This document shows, piece by piece, positions 2,808 through 47,559 of a stretch of 64,000 nucleotides of DNA (positions are counted from its first letter, which is position 1; each line of letters opens with the position of its first letter). The DNA is from an uncultured Bacilli bacterium (lineage in GTDB: Bacteria; Bacillota_I; Bacilli_A; RF39; UBA660): the NCBI GenBank assembly GCA_934155185.1, contig CAKPGT010000004.1, forward strand, positions 31,910-95,909, read 5' to 3'. The notes under the pieces were generated by a model. The model was not told the origin of the DNA and searched no databases. It was given only the letters and a program-made list of their open reading frames with translations. The position numbers and the translations under genes were made by a program.

Positions 2808-5800
2808 ATGAAGTCTAGAATAAATGTTGAGAAAATTAAAAATAACATTATAATAGGATGGATAAAGTTCAAAAACTTAGTTAAGGAACATAAATATATT
2901 TCATCAGTTTTGGGTTTGTTTTTAATTTCTTGTATAATAGGTTTAGCAGTTTATGCTCAAGAAGATGAATATGCGGGAAAAATTGCAGCTGAAATAAATG
3001 AAATTGAAACTTATACAATAAACGAAAGTGGCGTACTAGGTAAAAGTGAAACAGTATACAGTTTTGATACAATTGTATTTGGTGTAAAATACTACTTAAA
3101 TGGCGCTTTACCAAGCGGTGCTACATTATCAAGGGATGCTATTATTGAAGCTACAGTTGATACCGAAGATGTTGATGTATATTGGTACCATATGGATCAA
3201 GATGATGGCAATTATGAAATAGGAAGTAATAAAGTTAAGGTAGAAATGTATGATAAAGCAGTAGGAACCAATAACAGTTCGTTAAATGAGATAAAATTAT
3301 ATTTAAAAGTTAATAATGTAGAAAATGATAAAGAGATAAGTGTTACTATTAAAGTATATGAATCCACTTCTGAAGAAAAATCAAATAGTAAAAGGAAAAG
3401 TTTTAAAGTTAGTAGTACTCTTCAACCTTTAACAGCTAAAATAAGAAATGGCAGTGCATATAAAAAAGATGAATTTAAAGGAAGATATGTTCCTTATGGT
3501 ATATTACTTGGTTTTGAAGGTGATTCTTTAAAAGGCAAATATTTTTCAAAGACTGAAATAATATTAGAGGCATCGCAGGAATTAAATGGCCAAATTCAAC
3601 AGCTTTCGTTAGATACAACCGATGACTATTATGGCGTTTATGACAAAGATAAAAAATTATTGTCAAATTTTCCAAACGGAAAATATGATGATACAGACAG
3701 CTCGGTTAAGGACTCGGGCAGTGTTTTATTAGAAAAGTTAGAAAGTGAAACCAAATCTAGCCAAATACAAGAAAAAAAATCGAGTCCATTATATTTACTA
3801 GGCGATAAAAGCATAATTTTGGAAGTTGGTGAGGAATATAATGATCCAGGCGTTAGTTTATCAAACAAAGGGACAGCGCTAGGTAATGACAAGTATAAGA
3901 CGATTTTCAAAAATTCTGAAAACAAAGAAATAAGTGATTATAATGCGATGGTTTCAAAGGAAGGCACGTATAAAATAGGCTATGTATATGAGAATGGCCC
4001 ATCTAAAACAACAATATATAGAAATGTTGAAGTTATAGCTAGCAGCGGCGATAAAAGCGTTAGTGTTGATGGCAATACATATTCTCTTAATGGCAACACC
4101 AACATTAACTTAATAAAAGGTGAAAAATACGAAGAACCAGGAATATTAAAAAATGGCAAACGTATTGAAGATATGAATAGTGACAACGGTGTTACTATTG
4201 AAATTACAAAAGATGATAATATCGAAACTGCTGGTGGCAAAATTATATATACAATTATTTCAAAGAATAATTCATCAACTCAGAAGCTTCTAAAAAGAAA
4301 TGTAAATGTTATAGAGAAAGTTGGTGAAGTTGGTGTAGATGAGAAAGTATTAAATGCTTCAACAGTTGAGCAATGTACTGGTGCAGAATGTAAAATTAGT
4401 TATTATAAAGATAATGAAGAAATCAAGGATATTTCGTCTGTTCAATCAGGAACTTATGATGTTGAATATAAGCTATCAAATGAAGATTACGAAGTTGTAA
4501 TTAGAAGTACGATGACGATTGAAAAGAAAGTTCAGTACAAATTAAAGATTGATAATATAAAAACAGATGATATATATTATAAAGATAATAATTTTATAGC
4601 ATTAGGTGCTTACTTTGTTAATGTAATGTCAGAAAGACCGGAGGGTAATACCAATGATATTCCTGTCTCATTAAAGATAGTTAAGATAGGTAGTACGGAA
4701 GCTGATATTACTTCGGTACCTTCAATTAATCTAAACGTTTCCGAAGGAACAAAAACTAGTACGTTAGATTTTTATACTGGAGATGAAGACAGCATAGATT
4801 TGTTAGACAATGGTAGTTATTTAGCGTACGGAGAAGAGACAATATTAAGATCACAATTTAGCTATTCAAAAGATGGTGATAATACTATAAAAAGTTTATC
4901 AGTCAAAGTTCCTGTAAATACTGGTGATAATCAATTTTCAATGGTAGAATACTCAACAGATTCTGAATCGCCTGCATATGATGTTAATTATAATGTAAAG
5001 GTAGAATATTATGATAAAGACGGAAAAACGGTAAAGTTCAGTGATGAGACATTAGCTTATATTATATATACAGCTGAAGGTGTATCACCGGGAACAAATA
5101 TCGACTTTAGAGTAAGACTTAAGGTCAATAGTATAAACCATGGTAAATCTGTTAAATTATCAGGTGCTACATGTAGTGCAGATGGAAAAAATATCAATGT
5201 TGATATTAAACAAACATTAAATATAACTTCATTTAAAGCTAGAACTACTATTTCAGTGGATGGTAATGAATCTGATATTGAAGTCGATGGTTCTAAAAAG
5301 TCAACATGGACAATATATCCTACAGTGTCAAGACCTGCTTCAGTAATTAATACTCAAGTCGCTGGTACGAACCAACTAGATTATGTTAATATAACTGTGG
5401 AACTTCCAGAAGGAATAAATTATGTATACAATGATGAATATGATAAGCCTACTATAACAGAAAATGGAAGAAAGTTAACTTATAAAATACTAGGCAAAAA
5501 AATTAACGATTGGTTTGAACCTATATATTTTGATACAAATTATGATATTAATATTGAAAATGGTAAAAAATTAACTGTAAAATCTATAATTGATGCTACA
5601 ACTAAGGATGAAACACCTATTACTGACATATCTAGTGAAGCTCTAAGAACAACTAGTCGAAGCGTTATATTCCAAAATGTCAATAACATAAGATTTTCAC
5701 TTACAACGGATTATAGTGCGGTCTCTAAAAACCAGCCTTTTACTTTTTCTTCAAATGTGTATAATTCACAATCAGAAAATACCAGTACGGTTATAATTCT

Positions 5801-6971
5801 TCCTTATAATGAGGATATTGAAGGTAGTAAAAAGTTTAATGGAACATACTCTTTAGATTTATCAAGTATTTCATCTAATAAAGAAGTGTATTGTACTAAA
5901 GAAAATTCATCAAATATGGTAACCAATTCTGACAGCCTAGCATCCTCTGAAATATGGAATACATGTGATGATTATAGTGGTGTGACAGCAATTAAGATTG
6001 TTGGTTCGGATAATACAATGAAAAATATTATTAAGATTATTCCGGAAAATAATAAATCAGATGATAATTACGAAATCAGAGCTTACTTATATGATAATGG
6101 ATTAAAAAAAGTTTCTGATAAAAAAACAAATGTTAGTGTAATAAGTAAAAAAATAACTGGTATTGTTTGGGAAGATTTTGATGATAATGGTATAATGGAT
6201 ATAGATGAGTCTATGGTTTCTGATGTTATATTAAAATTATATAATGCAGAGACTGACGAATATATTAATCAAACTGTTTCAGATGTAAAAGGACAATACA
6301 CCTTATCGGATTTGGAGCCTGGAAAGTATTATATTAGTGCAGAATTTAATACAGCTAAATATGGATTAACCCAGTATAGGGCTAGCGAAAATAAATCCGA
6401 AACATCGTCATTTAAAACAAGTTCTTCAGATTATATTACAGATGAAATAGAAATTACTAATAATACAAGAACAATTAATAATATAAACTTAGGATTATCA
6501 TTGAAGAAGGTATACAAGCTAAAATTATCTAAGTATGTAAACAAAGTAATTATTACTGATAAACTTGGAATACCTTCAACGAGAGACTTTAATAATGTGA
6601 CACTTGCAAAAGTAGATGTTAAAGATTTTGCTAATGTGAAAATGAAGGTAGTATATGTATTAGAATTAGAAAACATTGGATATTATCCTGGTTATGTTTA
6701 TAGAATAAAAGATTATATTCCAGATGGCATGACATTTAATGCGGAATATGAAGAAAATACGGGCTGGGAGTTAAATGAAGATGGATATCTTGAAAACAAT
6801 ACACTATCAGATGAGTTGATATATGGTGGTCAAAAAAAATATTTAACTATAGCATTTGATGTTACAAGAAAAGAGGCCGGCTCATTTATTAATTATGCTG
6901 AAGTAAATGATGATGATTTGTTTATTTTAAGTAGTGAAACAGGCGAAGATGGAGATGATAGTAATGAATAA
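2808..6971 (+). CDS. 1387-aa secreted or cell-surface multidomain protein (Ig-like DUF5011-type repeats, SdrD-B/Cna-B-like domain, DUF11-like C-terminal domain); no C-terminal anchor seen
   Basis: GGAGGG SD. N-terminal hydrophobic segment YISSVLGLFLISCIIGLAVYA. GEEYNDPGVSL and GEKYEEPGILK resemble DUF5011 Ig-like repeats. ITGIVWEDFDDNGIMDIDE...VSDVKGQYTLSDLEPGKYYISAEF resembles the SD-repeat B/Cna-B fold. VVYVLELENIGYYPGYVYRIKDYIPDGMTF...NYAEV resembles DUF11. It ends in an acidic tail with no LPXTG or TM segment. Confidence 0.8.
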   Translation: MKSRINVEKIKNNIIIGWIKFKNLVKEHKYISSVLGLFLISCIIGLAVYAQEDEYAGKIAAEINEIETYTINESGVLGKSETVYSFDTIVFGVKYYLNGALPSGATLSRDAIIEATVDTEDVDVYWYHMDQDDGNYEIGSNKVKVEMYDKAVGTNNSSLNEIKLYLKVNNVENDKEISVTIKVYESTSEEKSNSKRKSFKVSSTLQPLTAKIRNGSAYKKDEFKGRYVPYGILLGFEGDSLKGKYFSKTEIILEASQELNGQIQQLSLDTTDDYYGVYDKDKKLLSNFPNGKYDDTDSSVKDSGSVLLEKLESETKSSQIQEKKSSPLYLLGDKSIILEVGEEYNDPGVSLSNKGTALGNDKYKTIFKNSENKEISDYNAMVSKEGTYKIGYVYENGPSKTTIYRNVEVIASSGDKSVSVDGNTYSLNGNTNINLIKGEKYEEPGILKNGKRIEDMNSDNGVTIEITKDDNIETAGGKIIYTIISKNNSSTQKLLKRNVNVIEKVGEVGVDEKVLNASTVEQCTGAECKISYYKDNEEIKDISSVQSGTYDVEYKLSNEDYEVVIRSTMTIEKKVQYKLKIDNIKTDDIYYKDNNFIALGAYFVNVMSERPEGNTNDIPVSLKIVKIGSTEADITSVPSINLNVSEGTKTSTLDFYTGDEDSIDLLDNGSYLAYGEETILRSQFSYSKDGDNTIKSLSVKVPVNTGDNQFSMVEYSTDSESPAYDVNYNVKVEYYDKDGKTVKFSDETLAYIIYTAEGVSPGTNIDFRVRLKVNSINHGKSVKLSGATCSADGKNINVDIKQTLNITSFKARTTISVDGNESDIEVDGSKKSTWTIYPTVSRPASVINTQVAGTNQLDYVNITVELPEGINYVYNDEYDKPTITENGRKLTYKILGKKINDWFEPIYFDTNYDINIENGKKLTVKSIIDATTKDETPITDISSEALRTTSRSVIFQNVNNIRFSLTTDYSAVSKNQPFTFSSNVYNSQSENTSTVIILPYNEDIEGSKKFNGTYSLDLSSISSNKEVYCTKENSSNMVTNSDSLASSEIWNTCDDYSGVTAIKIVGSDNTMKNIIKIIPENNKSDDNYEIRAYLYDNGLKKVSDKKTNVSVISKKITGIVWEDFDDNGIMDIDESMVSDVILKLYNAETDEYINQTVSDVKGQYTLSDLEPGKYYISAEFNTAKYGLTQYRASENKSETSSFKTSSSDYITDEIEITNNTRTINNINLGLSLKKVYKLKLSKYVNKVIITDKLGIPSTRDFNNVTLAKVDVKDFANVKMKVVYVLELENIGYYPGYVYRIKDYIPDGMTFNAEYEENTGWELNEDGYLENNTLSDELIYGGQKKYLTIAFDVTRKEAGSFINYAEVNDDDLFILSSETGEDGDDSNE

Positions 6972-9153
6972 TAAAGCAAAAAAAATAATTAGTTATATTT
7001 TTATTTCCGTTTTACTATCAATATTGATGATTGATAAGGTCTTTGCTGCAAATTTTACTTCAACGGTTATAGAAGATAAGTCTTTCAATTCAAAAAAGTA
7101 CCCAACGAACTATTCATATGATTATGTTAATGGAACTATAAAAAAGGGTACGAGTTATACAAGGTATATATTAAAACCATGGGCATTTTATGTAACTCAA
7201 GGAAGTACTAAAAGGCAAGTATTTTGTATAGAGCAATATAGAAATGCATACTCTCAAAAAACTTATGAAAAATATAACTGTGAAAAAAATAACAGTAGTT
7301 GTGTTGTGTCAGAAAATAAAAAGAAGGATTTAATTAAACAAGCTATATCGGTCGGATATCATGTGACTTCTGCACCTGATAATAAAAATTTTGACAAGGA
7401 GATTGGGACCCTAAATAAGCTTACAAATGACAAGACATACGAGACAATCGCTCTTCAGGAAATAATATGGGAAATAATTAGAGGTGAAAGAACTTCATTT
7501 ACTTATTATGCACCGGACACTTGTAAGAGCAGTGTTAATGAAAAAAAATGTTTATTTTATTCTAAAATTTACAATAAAGGTAGTGGCACTCCCGAGGGAA
7601 AGCTTTTAACCAAATATAAAAGTATAATTAAAAAAGCTAAATATACATTTGATAAAATACCAAAGAATTTTGGTACTAATAGTAAGCCAGGAAGTGTTCA
7701 ACTTACTTACAATGAAAAGAAAAAGGTTTTTACGGCAGATTTACATGATAGTAATGGAGCATATAATAATTTTAATTTCAATTCAAGTAATAAAAACATA
7801 AAATTATCGGCTTCAGCTGATGGAAAAACTCTTACTATTACTAGTACTATAGCAATAGAAAAGGATACTCCAATTAAGATAACAGCTACAAACATAGTAA
7901 ATGATAAAAGCGACTATATTGAATATCATACAACTCAAAACTCTTTATTTCAAAAGTTTGGTTATGGAACAGCCGAGATACAATATTTTTTGGGTGTATA
8001 TACTCCTAAATATAAAATAGAGATAGTAAAACAAGATCAAAATGGAAATACTTTAGCTGGTGCGGAGTTTAAAATTTGTAATAAGAAAGGGTGCCCTAAA
8101 GGCTCAGTTATAGTTTCAAATCTAAAGACTAATAGTGCTGGTGTTGCTGCATATGATCAAATTGCTAAGCCTGGAACTTACTATGTTAGGGAGACTAAAG
8201 CCCCAACTGGTTATAACTTATACAGTAAAGAAATAAGTGTTACCGTAAATAAGAATGTCAAAATTCCAGTTAAGAATACGCCTAATACTTTTAAATTAAA
8301 AAAGTATATATATAATGAGACTGATAATTCAAATAACTTATTAGATACAAATTGTAACTTAGATACGGGTCCAATATTTGAAATTTATCATAAAAATAAT
8401 GGAAAGTATGAGAAAATATATTTTACTGAAAATAAAATTGGATCATATGATTATTATGGAACAAAAAGTGGTGGAAATACTACTTCTAGATTAACTACTT
8501 GTAAAGGAACGTTTGAGGCTTTCAAGTTTCCGGATTGTAAAGATTATAAGATAGTTGAAATACAGGCTCCAGAAGGAGTAACATTATCAAATTTTTCTGG
8601 TGAAATAAGTAACATATGTAATAAAACCCAAGAAGTTATAAATGGTTTTACTGGCCTTGAATTTCAAAAGAAAAATGATGACGGTGAGCTTTTGGATGGT
8701 GGAACATACATTCTTCAAACAAAAATAAACAATGTTTATACTGATGTACTTTTGAAAAAAACTCGAGATGGTGAGTATAGTTATCAAAAAGACTTAGATG
8801 ATTCTGAAAAAGATGCGACTTATGAATTAAAAACTAATAATGGAAAATTTTTAGTGAAGAATTTGCCACCGGGGGAATACAGAATTGTAGAGGCAGAAGC
8901 ACCAGAAGGCTATGAATTAATTAAAGATAAAGATTCTAAAGCGCTTGTTACAATAACCGATGAAAACAAAGATGGATATTATTTAGTTGAGATGATTAAT
9001 TACAAAGTTAATAAAGATGGTGATAATGCTTTCGCTGAGTTAATAGTCACGATAACAACAGGTAGAAAAGTTCTTAACTATGTATTTATAATTTCTGGAT
9101 TAGCCATTTTATTGGGCGCTGTAATAATTATAAGAAAAAAAATAAAGAAATAA
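6964..9153 (+). CDS. surface adhesin-like protein with signal peptide, possible N-terminal thioester domain, three SpaA/Cna-B-type (prealbumin-fold) repeats and a C-terminal TM plus basic tail
   Basis: I prefer the start at MNNKAKKIISYIFISVLLSILMIDKVFA (signal peptide); the track ORF starts at 6934. Repeats: IEIVKQDQNGNTLAGAEFKI...GTYYVRETKAPTGYNL; FEAFKF..YKIVEIQAPEGVTL; LEFQKKNDDGELLDGGTYIL...GEYRIVEAEAPEGYEL. C-terminus is ...VTITTGRKVLNYVFIISGLAILLGAVIIIRKKIKK. It overlaps the upstream gene by 8 nt. Confidence 0.8.
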   Translation: MNNKAKKIISYIFISVLLSILMIDKVFAANFTSTVIEDKSFNSKKYPTNYSYDYVNGTIKKGTSYTRYILKPWAFYVTQGSTKRQVFCIEQYRNAYSQKTYEKYNCEKNNSSCVVSENKKKDLIKQAISVGYHVTSAPDNKNFDKEIGTLNKLTNDKTYETIALQEIIWEIIRGERTSFTYYAPDTCKSSVNEKKCLFYSKIYNKGSGTPEGKLLTKYKSIIKKAKYTFDKIPKNFGTNSKPGSVQLTYNEKKKVFTADLHDSNGAYNNFNFNSSNKNIKLSASADGKTLTITSTIAIEKDTPIKITATNIVNDKSDYIEYHTTQNSLFQKFGYGTAEIQYFLGVYTPKYKIEIVKQDQNGNTLAGAEFKICNKKGCPKGSVIVSNLKTNSAGVAAYDQIAKPGTYYVRETKAPTGYNLYSKEISVTVNKNVKIPVKNTPNTFKLKKYIYNETDNSNNLLDTNCNLDTGPIFEIYHKNNGKYEKIYFTENKIGSYDYYGTKSGGNTTSRLTTCKGTFEAFKFPDCKDYKIVEIQAPEGVTLSNFSGEISNICNKTQEVINGFTGLEFQKKNDDGELLDGGTYILQTKINNVYTDVLLKKTRDGEYSYQKDLDDSEKDATYELKTNNGKFLVKNLPPGEYRIVEAEAPEGYELIKDKDSKALVTITDENKDGYYLVEMINYKVNKDGDNAFAELIVTITTGRKVLNYVFIISGLAILLGAVIIIRKKIKK

Positions 9154-14149: not shown

Positions 14150-14305
14150 TTATTGCCAAAGTGCAATTAATTATAGGTACCAAAGACAGTAGGAGCTTTA
14201 AATGTAGCGTAACTTATATTCCTACCGAGGACTAAAGCAAATATGTTTTTTAGGGTCTTTATTTGGTATCAAGTAAAGGCCTTTTTAGGTACTTATTAAT
14301 ATAGT
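14150..14305 (+). promoter_or_regulatory. putative rplJ (L10) leader with terminator-like hairpin
   Basis: 198-nt untranslated spacer before rplJ. GGTCTTTA...TAAAGGCC hairpin followed by TTTTTA, just upstream of the AAAGGAGG SD. An L10(L12)4-binding leader is known at this position in Firmicutes. Confidence 0.45.
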
Positions 14306-24187: not shown

Positions 24188-24571
24188 ATGTATAAAAAGT
24201 TAAAAAAACCTAATAAAAATTATTCAAATTTGAAATTACAAAATTATTGTAGTGATTTATTAGCATATAATCCAGATGCTACACTTATCATATCAAAACG
24301 TTTTATAGAAAATGCAAATGATAAAGGATTTGTAGAAATAAAGGAAAAAAATATACCTATTATTTATAGTTCTGTTGATCCTGGAGAGCTTATAAACCCT
24401 AAGTCTCTTACAATAAGAAAAATATATGAAGGCGATGAAGAGTACTACTATTTAACAATCTGGTGTGATAAGGAAATTCCACTTGCAAAAATTGTTCATA
24501 AACAATTAGTATTTACTGATGGAGATATTAAAGGAAAGGAAATTAAAAATTTATATCTTGATATAAAATAA
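24188..24571 (+). CDS. hypothetical protein (127 aa)
   Basis: ORF with TGGAG SD. An AT-rich hairpin plus T-run follows at about 24593-24628. I recognise no family. Confidence 0.5.
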   Translation: MYKKLKKPNKNYSNLKLQNYCSDLLAYNPDATLIISKRFIENANDKGFVEIKEKNIPIIYSSVDPGELINPKSLTIRKIYEGDEEYYYLTIWCDKEIPLAKIVHKQLVFTDGDIKGKEIKNLYLDIK

Positions 24572-25985: not shown

Positions 25986-27965
25986 ATGAAACAAAACAGT
26001 CAAAATATGAAAAAGGGTGCTTTTCCATATGCACTATTATTTTTAATAGCTATTTCGATAATGTTTTTCTATAGTATGACTAATACTTCAAATAAAGAGT
26101 TAAGTTATAATGAATTTAATAAGGCTCTTTCAAATAATAATGTTAAAGAAGTTGTTATAACACCTAGTAGATCAGCATACACCTATCAGATTACTGGTAA
26201 GTTAAAAGATGCTAAAGAAGGTGAAACATTTAATGTTAGAACACCACTTTCAGATACTGTTATAAATGAAATAGTAGAATCTAGTAAGGTTAAAGATTTT
26301 AAAATAATATCAAAATCGGATCCGTCTGCTAGTACTTGGTATTTATTCTTAATGAATGTTGCTCCATACTTGGTTGTAATTGGTATCGCATTTTGGTTCT
26401 TTACTAAACAACTTAATGGTCAAAAGGGTTCTATGGATTTTGGAAGAAGTAAGGCAAAATTAAACCCAGATAATGGAAGAGTAACATTTAAAGATGTTGC
26501 GGGACTTCCTGAAGAAAAAGAGGAATTACAAGAGTTAATAGATTTTCTAAAGTATCCTAAGAAATTTCAAAAGCTAGGGGCTAGAATACCTAAAGGAGTA
26601 CTATTAGTAGGTCCTCCAGGAACTGGTAAAACTTTGCTTGCAAAAGCAGTCGCTGGAGAAGCTAAAGCACCATTTTACTTTATATCAGGTTCTGACTTTG
26701 TAGAATTATATGTTGGTGTTGGAGCTAGCCGTGTAAGAGATATGTTTAAACAAGCAAAACAAAATGCACCTTGTTTAATATTTATAGATGAAATAGATGC
26801 AGTAGGTCGTCAACGTGGTACAGGTATTGGTGGAGGACATGATGAAAGAGAGCAAACACTTAACCAATTATTAACGGAAATGGACGGATTTGGAGCAAAT
26901 GAAGGTATAATTATTATTGCAGCGACAAATAGACCAGATGTACTTGATCCAGCCCTTTTAAGACCAGGAAGATTTGATAGACAAGTTACTGTTGCACTTC
27001 CTGAAATGAAAGCAAGGGAAGAAATACTTAAAGTTCATGCAAGAAATAAAATATTATCAAAAGGTGTTCATTTAGATAGCATTGCTAAAAGAACTGTTGG
27101 TTTTTCAGGAGCAGACTTAGAAAACCTTCTTAATGAATCAGCTTTACTTGCTGTTAGAAGAGAAAAAAGCGCTATTACTATGTTAGAAATTGATGAAGCA
27201 ATAGATAGAGTTATAATGGGACCTGCTAAGGTAACAAAAAAGTATACTGCTAAGGAAAAGAAACTAGTAGCATACCACGAAGCCGGTCATGCAGTGCTTG
27301 GAATTAAGCTTGATGATGCAAATGATGTTCAAAAAGTAACTATCATTCCACGTGGACAAGCTGGTGGATATAACTTAATGCTTCCGAAAGAAGAAAAATA
27401 TACTGCAACAAAAACTGAACTATTAGAACAGATTATGGGACTTTTAGGAGGACGTGTTGCAGAAGAGGTTGTATTTGGTGAGATAACAACTGGAGCTCAT
27501 AATGATTTTTCTAAGGCAACTAAGATAGCACGTAGTATGGTAACTGAATATGGAATGTCTAGCTTGGGACCAGTTCAATTAGAAACCCCTGAAGGCAGTT
27601 CATTCTTAGGAAGAGATTATAATAAAAATAGGAATTTCTCTGATCAAGTTGCACTTGAAATAGATAATGAAGTAAGAAAAATAATCAATGAATGTTATGC
27701 TAAGGCTAAAAAGATTATTGAAAAGAATAGAGATTTACTTGATTTAATAGCAACAAGCCTAATTGAGCATGAAACATTAACTAAAGAGCAAATCGACTAT
27801 TTAGCAGAAAACGGCAAGATGCCTGAAGAAGATATGCTAGATGATGTTAACATATCAAAACTTAAGGAAATGGCTAAAGAAAAAGGAATAAAAGGCTATT
27901 CTTCAATGAGTAAGGAAGAACTAAAGAAAAATTTAGCAGGCGAGCTAAAAGAAGAAAATAAATAG
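25986..27965 (+). CDS. ftsH: ATP-dependent zinc metalloprotease FtsH
   Basis: Walker [12 protein letters not shown] region, and the HEAGH zinc motif. Confidence 0.97.
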
Positions 27966-27980
27966 CTTTAAATATAGAAT

Positions 27981-28013
27981 ATCAGAGATTGTGGGAACTT
28001 TCTCTGATTTTTA
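27981..28013 (+). terminator. terminator after ftsH
   Basis: ATCAGAGA (27981-27988) pairs with TCTCTGAT (28001-28008), followed by TTTTT. Confidence 0.7.
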
Positions 28014-28021
28014 TTTTAGCT

Positions 28022-28050
28022 TTGACTGACTCTTACAATTGTGATATTAT
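28022..28050 (+). promoter_or_regulatory. near-consensus extended -10 promoter of the four-gene unknown operon
   Basis: TTGACT (28022-28027), 17-nt spacer, TATTAT (28045-28050), with TG at 28042-28043. Confidence 0.6.
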
Positions 28051-28092
28051 TATATTGGGATACTAGGAAGATATCAGAAGGGAGTTTGCGTA

Positions 28093-28674
28093 ATGAATAA
28101 AGAAGAGCTAGTTAATAAGATAATGGATAATTTTTATGAGGGAATGCCTGAGGATGAAAGACATTTATTAATTAGAGTACTGAATGCTGTAAAAAATAGC
28201 AAAGATGTATCGAAAGAACCATCTAAAGATTTATTTGAAATACAAAAAACTTGGGATAAAGTATCAAGTAAATTGTATAACAATAGTATTAGAAATTCAG
28301 ACGTAATATTTAAAAGTAATACAAATGATTTTAAATTTGAAGACTATGCATCTAACCATGGAAAACTAGATGAAACTACTTCTGATGAGTTTAGAAAAAA
28401 CGATATCAGTTATCTTAAGACCAAGGTTGAAATTTCAGACAAAAATATATATAAGCTTGAGACTAGATTGCTTGAAGATTATATAATGGCAGATGATTGT
28501 TTGAAAAACTATGAAAGTGATAAAGCCAAGAAGAAAATACTTATTTTACTAACAGAAATGGAAATATTACTTAAAATGCAAATAACTTTTCCTTCACAGC
28601 TTCCATCTTGTATCGATAGTTTAACAAGTAAAGAATCAGTTAAAAAGAGAGGGGAAATTAAACATGGTAAGTAA
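28093..28674 (+). CDS. hypothetical protein 1 of the unknown operon (193 aa, soluble, helical)
   Basis: GAAGGGAG SD. I recognise no motif. The end overlaps the next ORF by 11 nt. Confidence 0.65.
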   Translation: MNKEELVNKIMDNFYEGMPEDERHLLIRVLNAVKNSKDVSKEPSKDLFEIQKTWDKVSSKLYNNSIRNSDVIFKSNTNDFKFEDYASNHGKLDETTSDEFRKNDISYLKTKVEISDKNIYKLETRLLEDYIMADDCLKNYESDKAKKKILILLTEMEILLKMQITFPSQLPSCIDSLTSKESVKKRGEIKHGK

Positions 28675-30535
28675 TGTTATAAATAAAGTTAATGATAGCA
28701 TATTAAAATCATCTGATTCTTTAAATTTAAACATAGACGAAATAAATGAATATATAGATTACCTAAAAAGAGTTAGCTCTGCCATAAAAGAATTTTTAAA
28801 TGAATATGAAAGGACGGGGAACCCTGATTTTAGTATCCTTGTTGGTTTTGAAAATTTTCTTATTGAAAACCACGTATATAAAAGTGGAGTAGATTATAAT
28901 GAACTTGTATCAATTAAACTTGAGCTTAATAAGAGCTTTCCAGGTAGAATATTTGATATAGATAAAGAATTAGATGACCTACTTAGAAAAATGCCATCTG
29001 CATTAAGAACGTCAATTAATGAATATAGAAGATATGTAACTGAAAAAAGAATAGCTATGGATAGAATTGATGAACTTAATAAAATAAAACGGTTTATTAA
29101 AAAGATAGAGGATGGATACGATATATTAGGTTCTGATGAAATAAGTTTAATAGAGCGTTTAGATATTAATGAGGAAGAACGTTTAGAATTATATTCATAT
29201 GTAGTTACTAATAATTCTAAATTAATGCTTGAAATACTTAATAGAAGAAAAGAGGCAGATAAAAAAGCAGCCAAGGAGGTAGAACGAAGAAAACTTGAAG
29301 AAGCCCGCAAAAGAAATGCTGATGATAAGCAGGCTGAGCAAAGAAACAGCGTTGAACCTAAACCTGTTATGTCTGAACACTCTTTAAGTGAACAAGAAAA
29401 GAGTTTACTTAATTATGCAAGACATATAATAAAAGAAAATGACATCACAGACAAAAGCTTTTTAGCTTTAGTTGAAGGGTGCACACCACTAGAAATATAC
29501 GAGTTTTTATATGACTATGGAGATGCTACAAATAATATAGCCTTGGTATTAAATGATGTAATCATCCCAAAGATTAATGATAGGTCGCTAAATAATATAG
29601 AAGAAGTATTACATAAATATATATCTACTTATAGTGAAATAAAAAGAAATAATAGTATACCATGCAAGTTAAAAAATGCAAATATGCAAGATGTACTAGA
29701 AGTAATGCAAAAGGCTGAAAATCTTATTGAATATTATAATGAGAATGAAGAGGAATTAAGTAAAACAATGATTGGATATTTTAACTCATTAAAGAATCTT
29801 CATCATGATGTTGAATTTTCAATTTTAGACGATGAGGTATTTGCAACATCTTTATTCCTTGATACATTTGCTGATTTAAAGAAGGCTGTAGATTATATAG
29901 AAAAGTTAATGAATAGTAATAAAAAGACTAATGATGATGACAAATTAGAAGAAGATGTTTATACGGCAGAAGATTTTTATAAAGGTTCAAATAGCATAAT
30001 CTTTTTCCCACCAGGAGTTAATCTTTCTGAGCAGATTGATGAAGATGGGTCTTTAGAATCAGTTGATAAAAAAAGGGTGTTATTAAGTTTAAAGAAGTTT
30101 TGTAATAAAGAAAAAGCATATTTAGGCACTATGCATTCACATCACGTGTCTGACCATGATAATATTGATTTATTTAGAAAATTAAAAAGCTTTAGAACTG
30201 AAGAATACAGAATATTTTATAGAGTTCTTTCAGCACCTATTTTAGAAAAAATATATGGTAAAAAGCTTGATATACTGTTTGTATTTAAAGTGGGTTACGG
30301 GGAAATGAATAAGAAAAAAAAGGATAGGTTAAATAATGCAGCTAAAACAATATATTTAGCTTCAAGTGATTATATTTCACAAATTGACACTATTTTAAAG
30401 TCAAATGATATTGAAAAAATAAAAGCCTTAGTTAATGAACAATTTGATAAAATGAATGATTATATTAAAGAAAGTAGTATTAGGCAGGATGTGCCTTCTA
30501 GTATAGGCTCTAAGGGAGGTTCTGAAGATGAATAG
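28664..30535 (+). CDS. hypothetical protein 2 (623 aa): helical/coiled-coil N-terminal part, RelE/ParE-like C-terminal domain
   Basis: GAGAGGGG SD. Charged coiled coil RRKEADKKAAKEVERRKLEEARKRNADDKQAEQ. The C-terminal LFRKLKSFRTEEYRIFYRVLS...LDILFVFKVGYGEMNKKKKD aligns by eye with E. coli RelE ...IKLRSSGYRLVYQVIDEKVVVFVISVGKRERSEVY. Confidence 0.65.
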   Translation: MVSNVINKVNDSILKSSDSLNLNIDEINEYIDYLKRVSSAIKEFLNEYERTGNPDFSILVGFENFLIENHVYKSGVDYNELVSIKLELNKSFPGRIFDIDKELDDLLRKMPSALRTSINEYRRYVTEKRIAMDRIDELNKIKRFIKKIEDGYDILGSDEISLIERLDINEEERLELYSYVVTNNSKLMLEILNRRKEADKKAAKEVERRKLEEARKRNADDKQAEQRNSVEPKPVMSEHSLSEQEKSLLNYARHIIKENDITDKSFLALVEGCTPLEIYEFLYDYGDATNNIALVLNDVIIPKINDRSLNNIEEVLHKYISTYSEIKRNNSIPCKLKNANMQDVLEVMQKAENLIEYYNENEEELSKTMIGYFNSLKNLHHDVEFSILDDEVFATSLFLDTFADLKKAVDYIEKLMNSNKKTNDDDKLEEDVYTAEDFYKGSNSIIFFPPGVNLSEQIDEDGSLESVDKKRVLLSLKKFCNKEKAYLGTMHSHHVSDHDNIDLFRKLKSFRTEEYRIFYRVLSAPILEKIYGKKLDILFVFKVGYGEMNKKKKDRLNNAAKTIYLASSDYISQIDTILKSNDIEKIKALVNEQFDKMNDYIKESSIRQDVPSSIGSKGGSEDE

Positions 30536-32306
30536 TATTGACAAACTATGTGAAATGCTTGAAAGTAAAAATCAGGAAAGCAGTGAAATAATAGGCGAGT
30601 TAGAAAGTCTGCAAGTAATTCTAGAAAACCCATTAAATTACACCAGTGATTCTATTTCTAAATTAAAAGATATTTTATCTTCAGAAAACAGATTAGATGA
30701 AAAAGAGTTAGAATTTCTATTTAAGTTTACAAGTCTTAGTGAAATAACAAAGAAATATTTCTTAAGTAAAGGACTTAAAGATTCTGAAAGAAGTATTCTT
30801 GACAGTATTGATAAAAGAATTAAAAATAGTATATCATGCTATAAATCTAATAATATTAGTATAATTAATATAAAAGAGTTATTACTTAAATTAAAAAAAC
30901 GTAGTAATGAATTTATAACTCAAGAAGAAATAAACTATATATTAAAAATTATTAAAGATGAATTAAAAACTCCTGAAAAAATAGAAATACTTATAGAAAT
31001 AGATAAATATAACCAAGTTTTATTTAAAAATTATGGCTTAACTTCTAATTTGCCACTTGGTATAGATGAAGCAGAATTAATAGAAACTAATATAGAGATA
31101 GATAAAATTAAAGAGTTATTAAATGAATTTGGCATTGATATATCAAAGTTTAAAGATATTGAATTAAATAAGTTATCAAAATATGGCAACTTGGAAAAAA
31201 TGAGAGATATTTTAGAACTACTAAGAACAGAAAAAATTATTGGTGATAATATAAAACTTTCATCAGAAATTCTCTCTAAGACTTTAATATATTCATCAGC
31301 TCTTAACATATTATCTGTAAAGGAAAAGAATGACGTAGATTTTAGGGAGTTAGTTAGAAAAATACCAACTGTTTTGTTTCCAACTGTAAAAGAAAGTGGC
31401 AAGAAAAAAGGTGGCACTGGAGAATGGACAATTGGTAGTAGTGGTGCTATGAATAACTATATTAAGAATAGTGAATTATTAGAATCTTTAGATATACCTT
31501 TTGAAGCGGTATGGAGACAATGCTTTTCATTCTTTTCTGCCAGCAATAAAACAATAGTAGGTAATATTAGTGATTTAGAGTTGTATGGAATTCCTTTAGT
31601 TAGAAATGATAATGGTATTAACAACGTGTTTAGTTCGTTAAAATACTTAAATGTTATTGATGCATATGATGTTGCCTTGGAAAATAATGCTAAAGAGTAT
31701 GCTCTTAATAATTTATCTGCCATATCTCCACATCTGTCATATAAATTTAGTATGATTAAACTAGCAAATAAGATGGGACTTAGTGAAGAACAAATTTTTG
31801 GTTACTATACCACTCCAATAAGAAAACCATTTTTAAAGGAGAAAACTCTAAAAAATCATTTTATTCCTATTAATTTAGAAGAAATATATAAAGAATATGA
31901 TGCAGTTAGTATAAATATTCCTAATAAGAGTATATATGACAATATATTTGATATAACCGATAATTGGCAAATACCAGCTTCTATATTTGATGATTCTAAC
32001 ATAAGAGCACTTGAGAAATTTTCTGAATCTGATGATTTGTATAACTTCAATGGTACAAAAATTTCTAAAAAGAAAGTATTAAGAAGGTATGCAGCACTAA
32101 AATTAAATGGTAAAGATAATGACATGTCATCTATTATGTACTGTATAATATATGGAAGTATGCTAGATGAAAAAGATTTTGAAAATATTTATAGTTTAGT
32201 AAAGGAAAGTGTTTTATTTAAACCAGATCCTGATATATATGTTTCACACAAGTATGTAGACGATGCGCTTGAAAAGAAAGCAAGTCTAAGGTTGGAGGGA
32301 AACTAA
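30528..32306 (+). CDS. hypothetical protein 3 (592 aa) with mTERF-like helical repeats
   Basis: AAGGGAGG SD. 8-nt overlap with protein 2. Repeated units of about 30 aa such as IDKIKELLNEFGIDISKF, MRDILELLRTEKIIGDNI, NISDLELYGIPLV and MIKLANKMGLSEEQIF. Confidence 0.65.
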   Translation: MNSIDKLCEMLESKNQESSEIIGELESLQVILENPLNYTSDSISKLKDILSSENRLDEKELEFLFKFTSLSEITKKYFLSKGLKDSERSILDSIDKRIKNSISCYKSNNISIINIKELLLKLKKRSNEFITQEEINYILKIIKDELKTPEKIEILIEIDKYNQVLFKNYGLTSNLPLGIDEAELIETNIEIDKIKELLNEFGIDISKFKDIELNKLSKYGNLEKMRDILELLRTEKIIGDNIKLSSEILSKTLIYSSALNILSVKEKNDVDFRELVRKIPTVLFPTVKESGKKKGGTGEWTIGSSGAMNNYIKNSELLESLDIPFEAVWRQCFSFFSASNKTIVGNISDLELYGIPLVRNDNGINNVFSSLKYLNVIDAYDVALENNAKEYALNNLSAISPHLSYKFSMIKLANKMGLSEEQIFGYYTTPIRKPFLKEKTLKNHFIPINLEEIYKEYDAVSINIPNKSIYDNIFDITDNWQIPASIFDDSNIRALEKFSESDDLYNFNGTKISKKKVLRRYAALKLNGKDNDMSSIMYCIIYGSMLDEKDFENIYSLVKESVLFKPDPDIYVSHKYVDDALEKKASLRLEGN

Positions 32307-32600
32307 ATGATTGAAAATATTAATAAAATAAATGTAAGTAAAAATTGTATAGAAAAGCTTAAAGACACTTTAAGCTATGATGAACTTATTTCTATAGATA
32401 GCAATTATGAGATTATTAATAATAATATTAAACTATTACAGTCATATGGTATAGAAAATATGGACGAGTTATTTCTTAACAAATATTATATTTTTATTGA
32501 AGAAACGGAGACTTTAGTAAAAAGGTTTTCTAAATATAACATACCTGTTTATGTTCAAATAATTAATAATGATTTTAGTGCAATTGATGAAATAATGTAA
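32307..32600 (+). CDS. hypothetical protein 4 (97 aa), with the same repeat flavour as protein 3
   Basis: GGAGGGA SD. The ATG directly abuts the TAA of protein 3. NNNIKLLQSYGIENMDELFLNKYYIFIEETETLVKRF. Confidence 0.6.
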   Translation: MIENINKINVSKNCIEKLKDTLSYDELISIDSNYEIINNNIKLLQSYGIENMDELFLNKYYIFIEETETLVKRFSKYNIPVYVQIINNDFSAIDEIM

Positions 32601-32628
32601 AAAACGACTACTTTTTAGTCGCTTTTTT
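32601..32628. terminator. bidirectional terminator between the unknown operon and the convergent PBP gene
   Basis: CGACTA (32605-32610) pairs with TAGTCG (32616-32621), flanked by an A-run and a T-run. It overlaps the last codons of the PBP gene. Confidence 0.6.
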
Positions 32629-47485: not shown

Positions 47486-47559
47486 TTATGCAACTGCTAT
47501 AATATAAGGGATTTTATATCTATGACTTATATTTAGTCATGGCGAAAGGAGCTGGAAGT

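Follow-up and report, generated by a model that had tools for sequence, protein, structure and literature searches.

The window examined here is a 64,000-nucleotide stretch of contig CAKPGT010000004.1, from an uncultured Bacilli bacterium, and between ftsH and a convergent penicillin-binding-protein (PBP) gene it holds a cassette of four genes, termed P1 to P4, that is undescribed in every library searched. The cassette is a conserved, portable module and, in its place beside ftsH, an accessory unit in a variable slot rather than a core operon. Strict co-occurrence, translational coupling, gain and loss, occupation of multiple sites, duplication and decay, and the fast evolution of P1 and P2 set against the conservation of P3 and P4 point to one stoichiometric, cytoplasmic, dispensable complex that the four products would form. 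As a tentative reading, possible rather than probable, the cassette is proposed to be a previously undescribed multi-subunit conflict module, of toxin or defence type, of very AT-rich gut Bacillota. The genes and the signals that delimit them are as follows.

27981-28017, + strand: intrinsic terminator of ftsH (hairpin 27981-28008 followed by a U tract), the left boundary of the inserted cassette.
28022-28050, + strand: sigma-70-type promoter with an extended -10 element (TTGACT, 17 nt, TGaTATTAT).
28093-28674, + strand: P1, open reading frame (ORF) of 193 aa.
28664-30535, + strand: P2, ORF of 623 aa, overlapping P1 by 11 nt.
30528-32306, + strand: P3, ORF of 592 aa, overlapping P2 by 8 nt; the core marker of the family.
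32307-32600, + strand: P4, ORF of 97 aa, its ATG abutting the stop codon of P3 (TAA-ATG).
32599-32627, both strands: bidirectional intrinsic terminator, common to the cassette and the convergent PBP gene.

Orthologues of all four genes, with 27-62% identity, occur in the same gene order. An exhaustive profile search with P3 returned 278 representative clusters (at 50% identity) at E <= 1e-3 and 162 at 1e-10, almost always 560-650 aa long and matched end to end; none of these clusters is named and none has a Pfam domain. Where P3 relatives are 41-47% identical, the four genes stand in order in the same slot between ftsH and the PBP gene. A wider set of loci, consisting of distant members and 64 further metagenome loci, was scanned with iterated hidden Markov models (HMMs) of P1-P4. 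In this set P1-P2-P3-P4 follow one another on a single strand in every locus whose contig is long enough, which amounts to at least 21 lineages (counted at approximately 60% P3 identity). A check of co-occurrence and gene order had been proposed in an earlier note on this DNA, and it was passed strongly. Translational coupling is conserved across the family: P3 and P4 overlap by 4 nt in 27 out of 38 unique cassettes. Distant examples include the following.

L090: genes of 153, 721, 608, and 97 aa.
L092: genes of 143, 648, 605, and 99 aa.
L095: genes of 134, 620, 590, and 102 aa.
L097: genes of 163, 651, 746, and 100 aa.
L098: two cassettes in tandem.
L099: a five-gene variant.

The chromosomal site differs by lineage, with cassettes found after ftsZ, gpr-spoIIP or prfA, beside uvrA, and elsewhere. 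Duplication and decay are both seen. After prfA and a YitT-like gene, L098 carries two divergent cassettes in tandem (L098:3822-12540), with the second P2 split into 567 and 84 aa, and one cassette is fully decayed, every gene being fragmented (L151:4293-8345). P2 is frameshifted in several assemblies, and in L141:5060-7074 (202x coverage) and L107:5850-8001 (16x) a single-base frameshift splits P2 alone, leaving P1, P3, and P4 intact. Three loci in which the HMMs recovered only P3 and P4 (L099, L153, and L163) have, on inspection, divergent proteins in the P2 position that end in a RelE-like hairpin. The subunits evolve at different rates: orthologues of P1 and P2 are approximately 30% identical where FtsH is 92% and PBP 83% identical, and P4 orthologues are 53-62% identical where P2 is at approximately 30%, which makes P4 the most conserved subunit. 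All of the carrier loci (81 out of 81) are very AT-rich, with a GC content of 21-32% (median 24.6%). Exact cassette proteins are also present in human-gut metagenome assemblies (Hadza and others), and by its FtsH relatives the host belongs with uncultured gut Bacilli, their labels ranging over 'Bacilli bacterium', 'Clostridium sp. CAG:594', Ca. Aphodocola, and 'Tenericutes' metagenome-assembled genomes (MAGs), among others.

Accessory status is supported by a survey of the slot in 34 congeneric species representatives, in which FtsH is 84-96% identical.

About 20 of the 34 genomes: ftsH and the PBP gene directly adjacent, with a gap of approximately 20-240 nt.
8 of the 34 genomes: unrelated cargo.
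3 of the 34 genomes: cassette present (L036; L012 and probably L042, both at contig ends).
3 of the 34 genomes: slot cut by contig ends.

A core housekeeping operon is rejected, as most congeners lack any insert between ftsH and the PBP gene. Compared with such an empty slot, the cassette is a clean insertion of approximately 4.6 kb, because the slot of the closest genome, L010, holds a single bidirectional terminator which on alignment is homologous to the right-hand terminator of the cassette. Neither att-like flanking repeats nor an integrase were found at the cassette. Gain or loss is recent, because genomes with the cassette and genomes with an empty slot have approximately 97% nucleotide identity in ftsH: 97.4% between L004 (cassette and extra cargo) and L011 (empty), and 97.2% between L036 (cassette) and L028 (empty).

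Other cargo of the slot includes large sigma-70-like proteins, one DUF4116 protein, and unknown proteins. Besides the cassette, the L004 slot contains a gene for a 605-aa unknown protein followed by one for a 1580-aa DEAD/ResIII/SNF2-like helicase (L004:12936-19771). The helicase has 6-7 tandem repeats of approximately 68 aa each at its C-terminus and, by eye, its N-terminal domain is seen again in the slot of L019, there as a protein of its own with 439 aa (L019:12078-13397). The 605-aa protein is by eye similar to one of 579 aa that is encoded behind the cassette in L036 (L036:16656-18395). Very large sigma-70-like proteins, of 459-692 aa, occupy the slot in L023:12095-14173, L029:12015-13616, L033:11446-12825, and L034:6518-8518, in the last of these followed by two unknown genes (269 and 177 aa). 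The L029 protein, which was the one scanned, has Pfam regions 2 and 4 with a long insert between them, and it matches PADLOC MzaA with E = 3e-36.

Within the window, reading of the sequence and the ORF list bore out the earlier description of four coupled ORFs, each behind a strong Shine-Dalgarno (SD) sequence and joined by two overlaps and a TAA-ATG abutment. The SD sequences are GAAGGGAG for P1 (28077-84), GAGAGGGG for P2 (28647-54), AAGGGAGG for P3 (30512-19), and GGAGGGA for P4 (32294-300), each 6-9 nt from its ATG. The promoter and the two terminators that had been claimed for the unit also stood up. The promoter has the top promoter-like score in the region, with 10/12 matches, and is the only 10/12 site with a TG; as a class, promoter-like sites show no enrichment over shuffled sequence in this AT-rich region (46, against 38.9 +/- 6.7). 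It is kept in L165, a relative that is 97-99% identical, and in part in L009. The ftsH terminator, with an 8-bp core stem (AUCAGAGA/UCUCUGAU), folds at -15.9 kcal/mol (z = -4.07), and an equally good fold was obtained in 0 out of 200 shuffles; for the bidirectional terminator the values are z = -4.1 and -5.2, one for each strand. No Rfam element was detected in or near the cassette, and upstream of P1 no operator-like palindrome conserved across lineages was found. In base composition the cassette is the same as its flanks, with no compositional island.

P1-P4 are real genes under constraint, all four showing purifying selection, because the ratios of non-synonymous to synonymous substitution rates (dN/dS) against L165 are low and because their orthologues are kept in the same order. 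The dN/dS is 0.22 for P1, 0.28 for P2, and 0.19 for P3; the value of 0.63 for P4 has few substitutions behind it. For the flanking ftsH, PBP gene, and argS, the range is 0.04-0.14. The products are predicted to be soluble and highly charged, as had been noted by eye: the highest 19-residue Kyte-Doolittle mean is 1.38, charged residues make up 26-36%, and the isoelectric points (4.4-6.4) are acidic.

The earlier inability to place any of the products in a named family was reproduced with profile libraries. Direct scans of P1-P4 against Pfam, NCBIfam, PADLOC, and PHROGs gave nothing significant, the PADLOC result including one chance-level match, to type IV Cas11 (E = 0.005, 55 residues of P2). 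Sequence and profile searches of the PDB with P1, P2, the C-terminal domain of P2, P3, and P4 returned only noise, in the form of foldon tags, coiled coils, and designed proteins. In the papers searched, mTERF was not found together with anti-phage or toxin-antitoxin terms, and neither of the two papers that offer precedents, discussed below (PMC11980606 and PMC11417379), describes the cassette.

Comparisons within the family reveal more of the architecture of P2, P3, and P4, and the following regions were delimited.

28682-29239, + strand: N-terminal helical domain of P2 (aa 7-192), paralogous to the N-terminal domain of P3.
29972-30343, + strand: putative RelE/ParE-like (BECR-fold-like) domain of P2 (approximately aa 437-560), from sub-threshold Pfam matches and hhalign.
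30540-31031, + strand: N-terminal helical domain of P3 (aa 5-168), paralogous to the N-terminal domain of P2.
31422-31595, + strand: segment of P3 resembling P4 (aa 299-356), a helical repeat with an L..[FY]G[IL] motif, holding the invariant residues G306 and Y353.
31647-32207, + strand: conserved C-terminal alpha/beta region of P3 (aa 374-560), with the motifs DxxIE and YNFNGxxISRxKVLRxY.

P2 and P3 are homologous over their first 170-190 residues, a relationship newly recognised here. Comparison of the P2 family with the P3 family by hhalign gave a probability of 91% (E = 1e-6) over 166 columns, against a probability of at most 0.4% in reversed and column-shuffled controls. P1 has no similarity to either. 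An AlphaFold2 (AF2) model of P3 has a mean predicted local distance difference test score (pLDDT) of 72, reaching approximately 87-94 over much of residues 21-100 in the N-terminal region; the N-terminal two-thirds is helical and the C-terminal region alpha/beta. Searches of this model with Foldseek against PDB and BFVD gave nothing with E < 0.05, and the highest-probability PDB matches, which are not significant (probability 0.38), are TALE repeat arrays. Besides G306 and Y353, the residues of P3 that are invariant in the alignment of 42 diverse representatives are D381, E385, Y505, S513, K516, and R519, all in the C-terminal region.

P4 has a consensus of three helical repeats of approximately 30 aa with an mTERF-like pattern, [FY]L..xG[IL]. 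The mTERF family (PF02536) is its top recurrent weak match, in 4 out of 21 diverse sequences (best E = 0.017); PF02536 was not reached at threshold by P4, and the P3 and P4 of the window have no match to it. Comparison of P4 with residues 299-356 of P3 by hhalign scored 34 (probability 50%, E = 1.7e-4), against 18.5 (1%) in the reversed control. Pfam searches with diverse P3 sequences found no recurrent family, mTERF being matched by 0 out of 42. The mTERF-like repeats that had been seen by eye in both proteins are supported weakly and below threshold, by the recurrent match of P4 and by the P4-like segment of P3; P3 itself never matches mTERF. Together these weak signals suggest that P3 and P4 form an mTERF/pTERF-like nucleic-acid-binding repeat surface.

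P2 is a large helical subunit with orthologues of 512-722 aa, and a homologue search from its alignment added no cluster to the six close ones already known. In four of six close sequences the C-terminal domain has a sub-threshold match to ParE_toxin (PF05016). Among 17 diverse P2 C-terminal domains, ParE_toxin was matched three times (best E = 0.023), Gp49 (PF05973) once (E = 5e-4), and MqsR_toxin (PF15723) once. Toxins of the RelE/ParE clan are thus the only recurrent Pfam families for this domain, all of the matches being sub-threshold; the curated threshold was not reached for PF05016, PF05973 or PF15723, and the P2 of the window has no match. The RelE/ParE-like call made earlier from the window alone is hence supported weakly and recurrently in its relatives, and not in the window's own protein. 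A RelE/ParE-fold module in P2 is suggested by this recurrence and by hhalign, which against E. coli RelE gave 55% over the YRxxY...VxFVxxVG beta-hairpin. The predicted secondary structure, taken from a low-confidence model, is beta-alpha-alpha-beta-beta (E444-446, H466-480, H501-506, E515-523, and E536-545), an unreliable pattern that would agree with the beta-alpha-alpha-beta-beta-beta, microbial-RNase-like fold of the superfamily. Arg516, in the YRIFY strand, is the only residue of the domain that is invariant across 17 lineages, and hhalign pairs it with R61 of RelE; conservation of His493, Tyr519, Tyr545, and Lys553 does not extend beyond the sub-clade of the window. The active-site sets used for comparison are K52/K54/R61/R81/Y87 in RelE and E46/R65/H83/Y84 in YoeB. 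C-terminal to the toxin-like domain, P2 has another conserved region, a helical tail. Foldseek with the P2 model gave no toxin match, a search that the pLDDT of 42 for this model makes meaningless.

P1 is a small, fast-evolving helical protein (134-224 aa in its orthologues) that is in first position in most cassettes. It has a conserved LL.RLY motif at the N-terminus, LITEmE.LL.L.ITF.S at the C-terminus, and a variable middle; its profile search of the PDB returned coiled-coil noise only.

The weak domain signals of P2, of P4, and of the P2/P3 pair are consistent with one another, and the following mechanism is proposed for a conflict module. P1-P4 would be subunits of a single stoichiometric cytoplasmic complex, in which the paralogous N-terminal helical domains would hold P2 and P3 together. 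P3 and P4 would provide a helical-repeat surface in the style of mTERF or pTERF that binds nucleic acid or the ribosome, as a sensor or targeting arm. The RelE/ParE-fold (BECR-like) domain of P2 would be the effector, and P1, as the small, fastest-evolving first gene, its neutraliser or regulator. A trigger, such as phage infection or loss of the cassette, would lead to growth arrest by the effector domain, through translation if it is RelE-like or through DNA topology if it is ParE-like. Complex formation, nucleic-acid binding, toxicity, the roles of the subunits, and the defence role are all parts that we infer.

Precedents exist for several of these elements. BECR-fold domains are C-terminal modules in multi-gene candidate defence operons, for example in PtuZ of ptuXYZ, the function of which is predicted only and for which the BECR model of PtuZ is confident (Gerdes, mBio 2025, PMC11980606). 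The cassette resembles ptuXYZ in having, towards the C-terminal end of a larger protein and after a helical linker, a domain like those of the RelE/ParE clan, and in being a conserved multi-gene operon instead of a two-gene toxin-antitoxin (TA) pair. It differs in lacking a DUF262 nuclease and a P-loop ATPase partner, its partners being helical-repeat proteins; the N-terminal part of P2 is a long helical region paralogous to P3 rather than a PIN-like domain, and the BECR assignment of P2 is sub-threshold, in contrast to the confident model for PtuZ. With type II TA systems (RelBE, ParDE, HigBA) the cassette shares a possible BECR-like domain with a conserved strand arginine, a small fast-evolving gene, P1, directly upstream and translationally coupled, and a patchy, accessory distribution with gain, loss, and decay. 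Those systems, however, have two genes, a toxin of approximately 90-130 aa, and an antitoxin with a DNA-binding fold, whereas the cassette has four genes over 4.5 kb, a toxin-like domain embedded in the 623-aa P2, and in P1 no recognisable antitoxin DNA-binding fold and similarity of coiled-coil type only; nor are the catalytic residues conserved family-wide, or any family model matched at threshold.

For P3 and P4, the nearest likeness is to pTERF, DNA-binding prokaryotic mTERF-like tandem-repeat proteins from MAGs of gut Bacillota, which are described as stand-alone proteins with 3-11 tandem units of 35 aa (NAR 2024, PMC11417379). Repeats of approximately 30 aa in three-helix style are found in P4 and in a segment of P3, the hosts are likewise uncultured gut Bacillota, and mTERF is the top recurrent weak Pfam match of P4. 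P4, in contrast, is a 97-aa operon subunit and P3 has extra N- and C-terminal domains, and the matches to mTERF are all below threshold, with none for P3. The slot between ftsH and the PBP gene has some likeness to a defence hotspot, being mostly empty and elsewhere holding diverse cargo without mobility genes, including the giant DEAD/ResIII helicase. It differs from one in that the cargo is mostly unannotated, with the sigma-70-like match to MzaA as the sole match to known defence, and in that the cassette stands alone among housekeeping genes in other lineages.

The DEAD/ResIII helicase in the L004 slot was counted in favour of a conflict module, and several results weigh against that reading. 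P1-P4 matched no defence model in PADLOC-DB v2.0 and received no significant domain assignment; in the window itself, P2 does not match ParE and P4 does not match mTERF. Nor could an enzymatic domain, such as an ATPase or a nuclease, be detected in any of them. The AF2 model of P2, built from a shallow alignment, is too poor to confirm a BECR fold, and the RelE/YoeB-type catalytic set is not conserved family-wide. Outside the ftsH slot the neighbours of the cassette are ordinary housekeeping genes, with no defence islands. One variant (L160:4340-5590 and L162:1-768), found after gpr-spoIIP at the same site as the five-gene L099, lacks P1 and has in the P2 position a 416-aa protein without the RelE/ParE-like end. 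The AT-rich host range is narrower than is usual for defence systems that spread horizontally, and searches of 50,697 phage genomes, of PLSDB plasmids, and of IMG/VR viral contigs turned up no homologue.

The main rival, which we consider somewhat unlikely while giving it an appreciable chance, is a lineage-specific, non-toxic, nucleic-acid-associated complex, in which P3 and P4 would be mTERF/pTERF-like DNA or RNA binders acting in transcription, RNA metabolism or nucleoid organisation, and the P2 domain would be merely structural or used for binding. It fits with a putative toxin domain that has only one invariant residue and is missing from one variant, with P3 and P4 as the most conserved parts, and with the sequence-specific DNA binding of pTERF proteins from similar organisms (PMC11417379). 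The housekeeping neighbours, the restriction of the family to very AT-rich Bacillota, the large sigma-70-like, transcription-related cargo that is often in the slot of congeners, and the failure to match any PADLOC defence model are also as such a complex would have it. Presence and absence at approximately 97% ftsH identity, decay, frameshifts, and a tandem duplicate are, however, more typical of dispensable conflict genes, and for the proposed binding arm the mTERF similarity is sub-threshold, and absent for P3, with no structural neighbour found by Foldseek for the P3 model. An alternative outside TA and defence, which is unlikely, is that the cassette encodes a machine of a new class, directed at nucleic acid or the ribosome and made up of a P2/P3 heterodimer, an mTERF-like arm of P3 and P4, and a BECR-fold module. 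Such a machine would have no ATPase or canonical nuclease, and recognition by P3 and P4, possibly sequence-specific, might lend itself to reprogramming, as has been proposed for pTERF; if true, this would be a new functional category in AT-rich gut Bacillota.

The RelE/ParE-like domain, the fast-evolving small upstream partner, the patchy distribution, and the occasional decay could also be those of a purely selfish, TA-like addiction module, which acts through post-segregational killing and brings the host no benefit. This is improbable, given that the cassette is not on plasmids, phages or recognisable mobile elements and has neither flanking repeats nor an integrase, that four genes and 4.5 kb are far above what addiction needs, and that the strongest sequence conservation is in P3 and P4. 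A secreted LXG/type VII polymorphic-toxin locus, with P1 as a helical chaperone, P2 carrying the C-terminal toxin, and P3 and P4 as immunity or accessory proteins, agrees superficially with the layout, in Bacillota, of a small helical protein ahead of a long helical one whose toxin-like domain lies close to the C-terminus. It is very improbable and was rejected: the LXG, WXG100, and type VII secretion system families are all without a match, so that neither the LXG domain nor WXG100 partners are in evidence; the toxin-like domain is not at the extreme C-terminus, being followed by the conserved helical tail; and secretion genes are absent from every neighbourhood inspected. The place of a small immunity gene is taken by P3, which at approximately 600 aa is the best-conserved family member and an N-terminal paralogue of P2. 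Insertion in a variable slot, and a Foldseek similarity between P3 and phage tape-measure proteins that is weak, not significant, and a reflection of long helices, could be cited for the remnant of a mobile element such as a phage, its structural or replication genes retaining no function of their own. That explanation is scarcely credible and is largely refuted by the absence of homologues from the phage, viral, and plasmid collections, and by purifying selection with the four-gene order kept in at least 21 lineages; integrase and att repeats are also lacking, and the composition is identical to that of the flanks.

If the proposal of a conflict module is right, this is a four-protein module that is widespread yet wholly unannotated, seen here chiefly in assemblies of uncultured Bacilli-type organisms from human-gut metagenomes; RelE/ParE toxins would then extend to a large multi-subunit architecture, and the newly recognised prokaryotic mTERF-like repeats would acquire a setting in the genome and in function. 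Should the defence idea fail, the analysis still defines four new, strictly co-occurring protein families, together with the P2/P3 paralogy and a variable cargo slot between ftsH and the PBP gene.

Elsewhere in the window, the only Rfam matches are an L10 leader (14162-14296, 72 bits) and an L31-Firmicutes leader (47520-47551, 36 bits). The C-terminal tail of FtsH (27840-27965) is by eye similar to helix-extension-helix domains of Rho_N/SAP type, which would be an unusual appendage for FtsH. Between rpoC and tilS there is a 127-aa ORF (24188-24571), kept at 127-128 aa in L165 and L004, with no Pfam match on record. Likewise by eye, the 515-aa ORF at 902-2449 seems to fuse a GNAT-like domain to a radical-SAM/SPASM-like protein, and the overlapping ORFs at 2808-6971 and 6934-9153 (1387 and 739 aa) resemble signal-anchored surface proteins of adhesin type, the second with a C-terminal membrane anchor.

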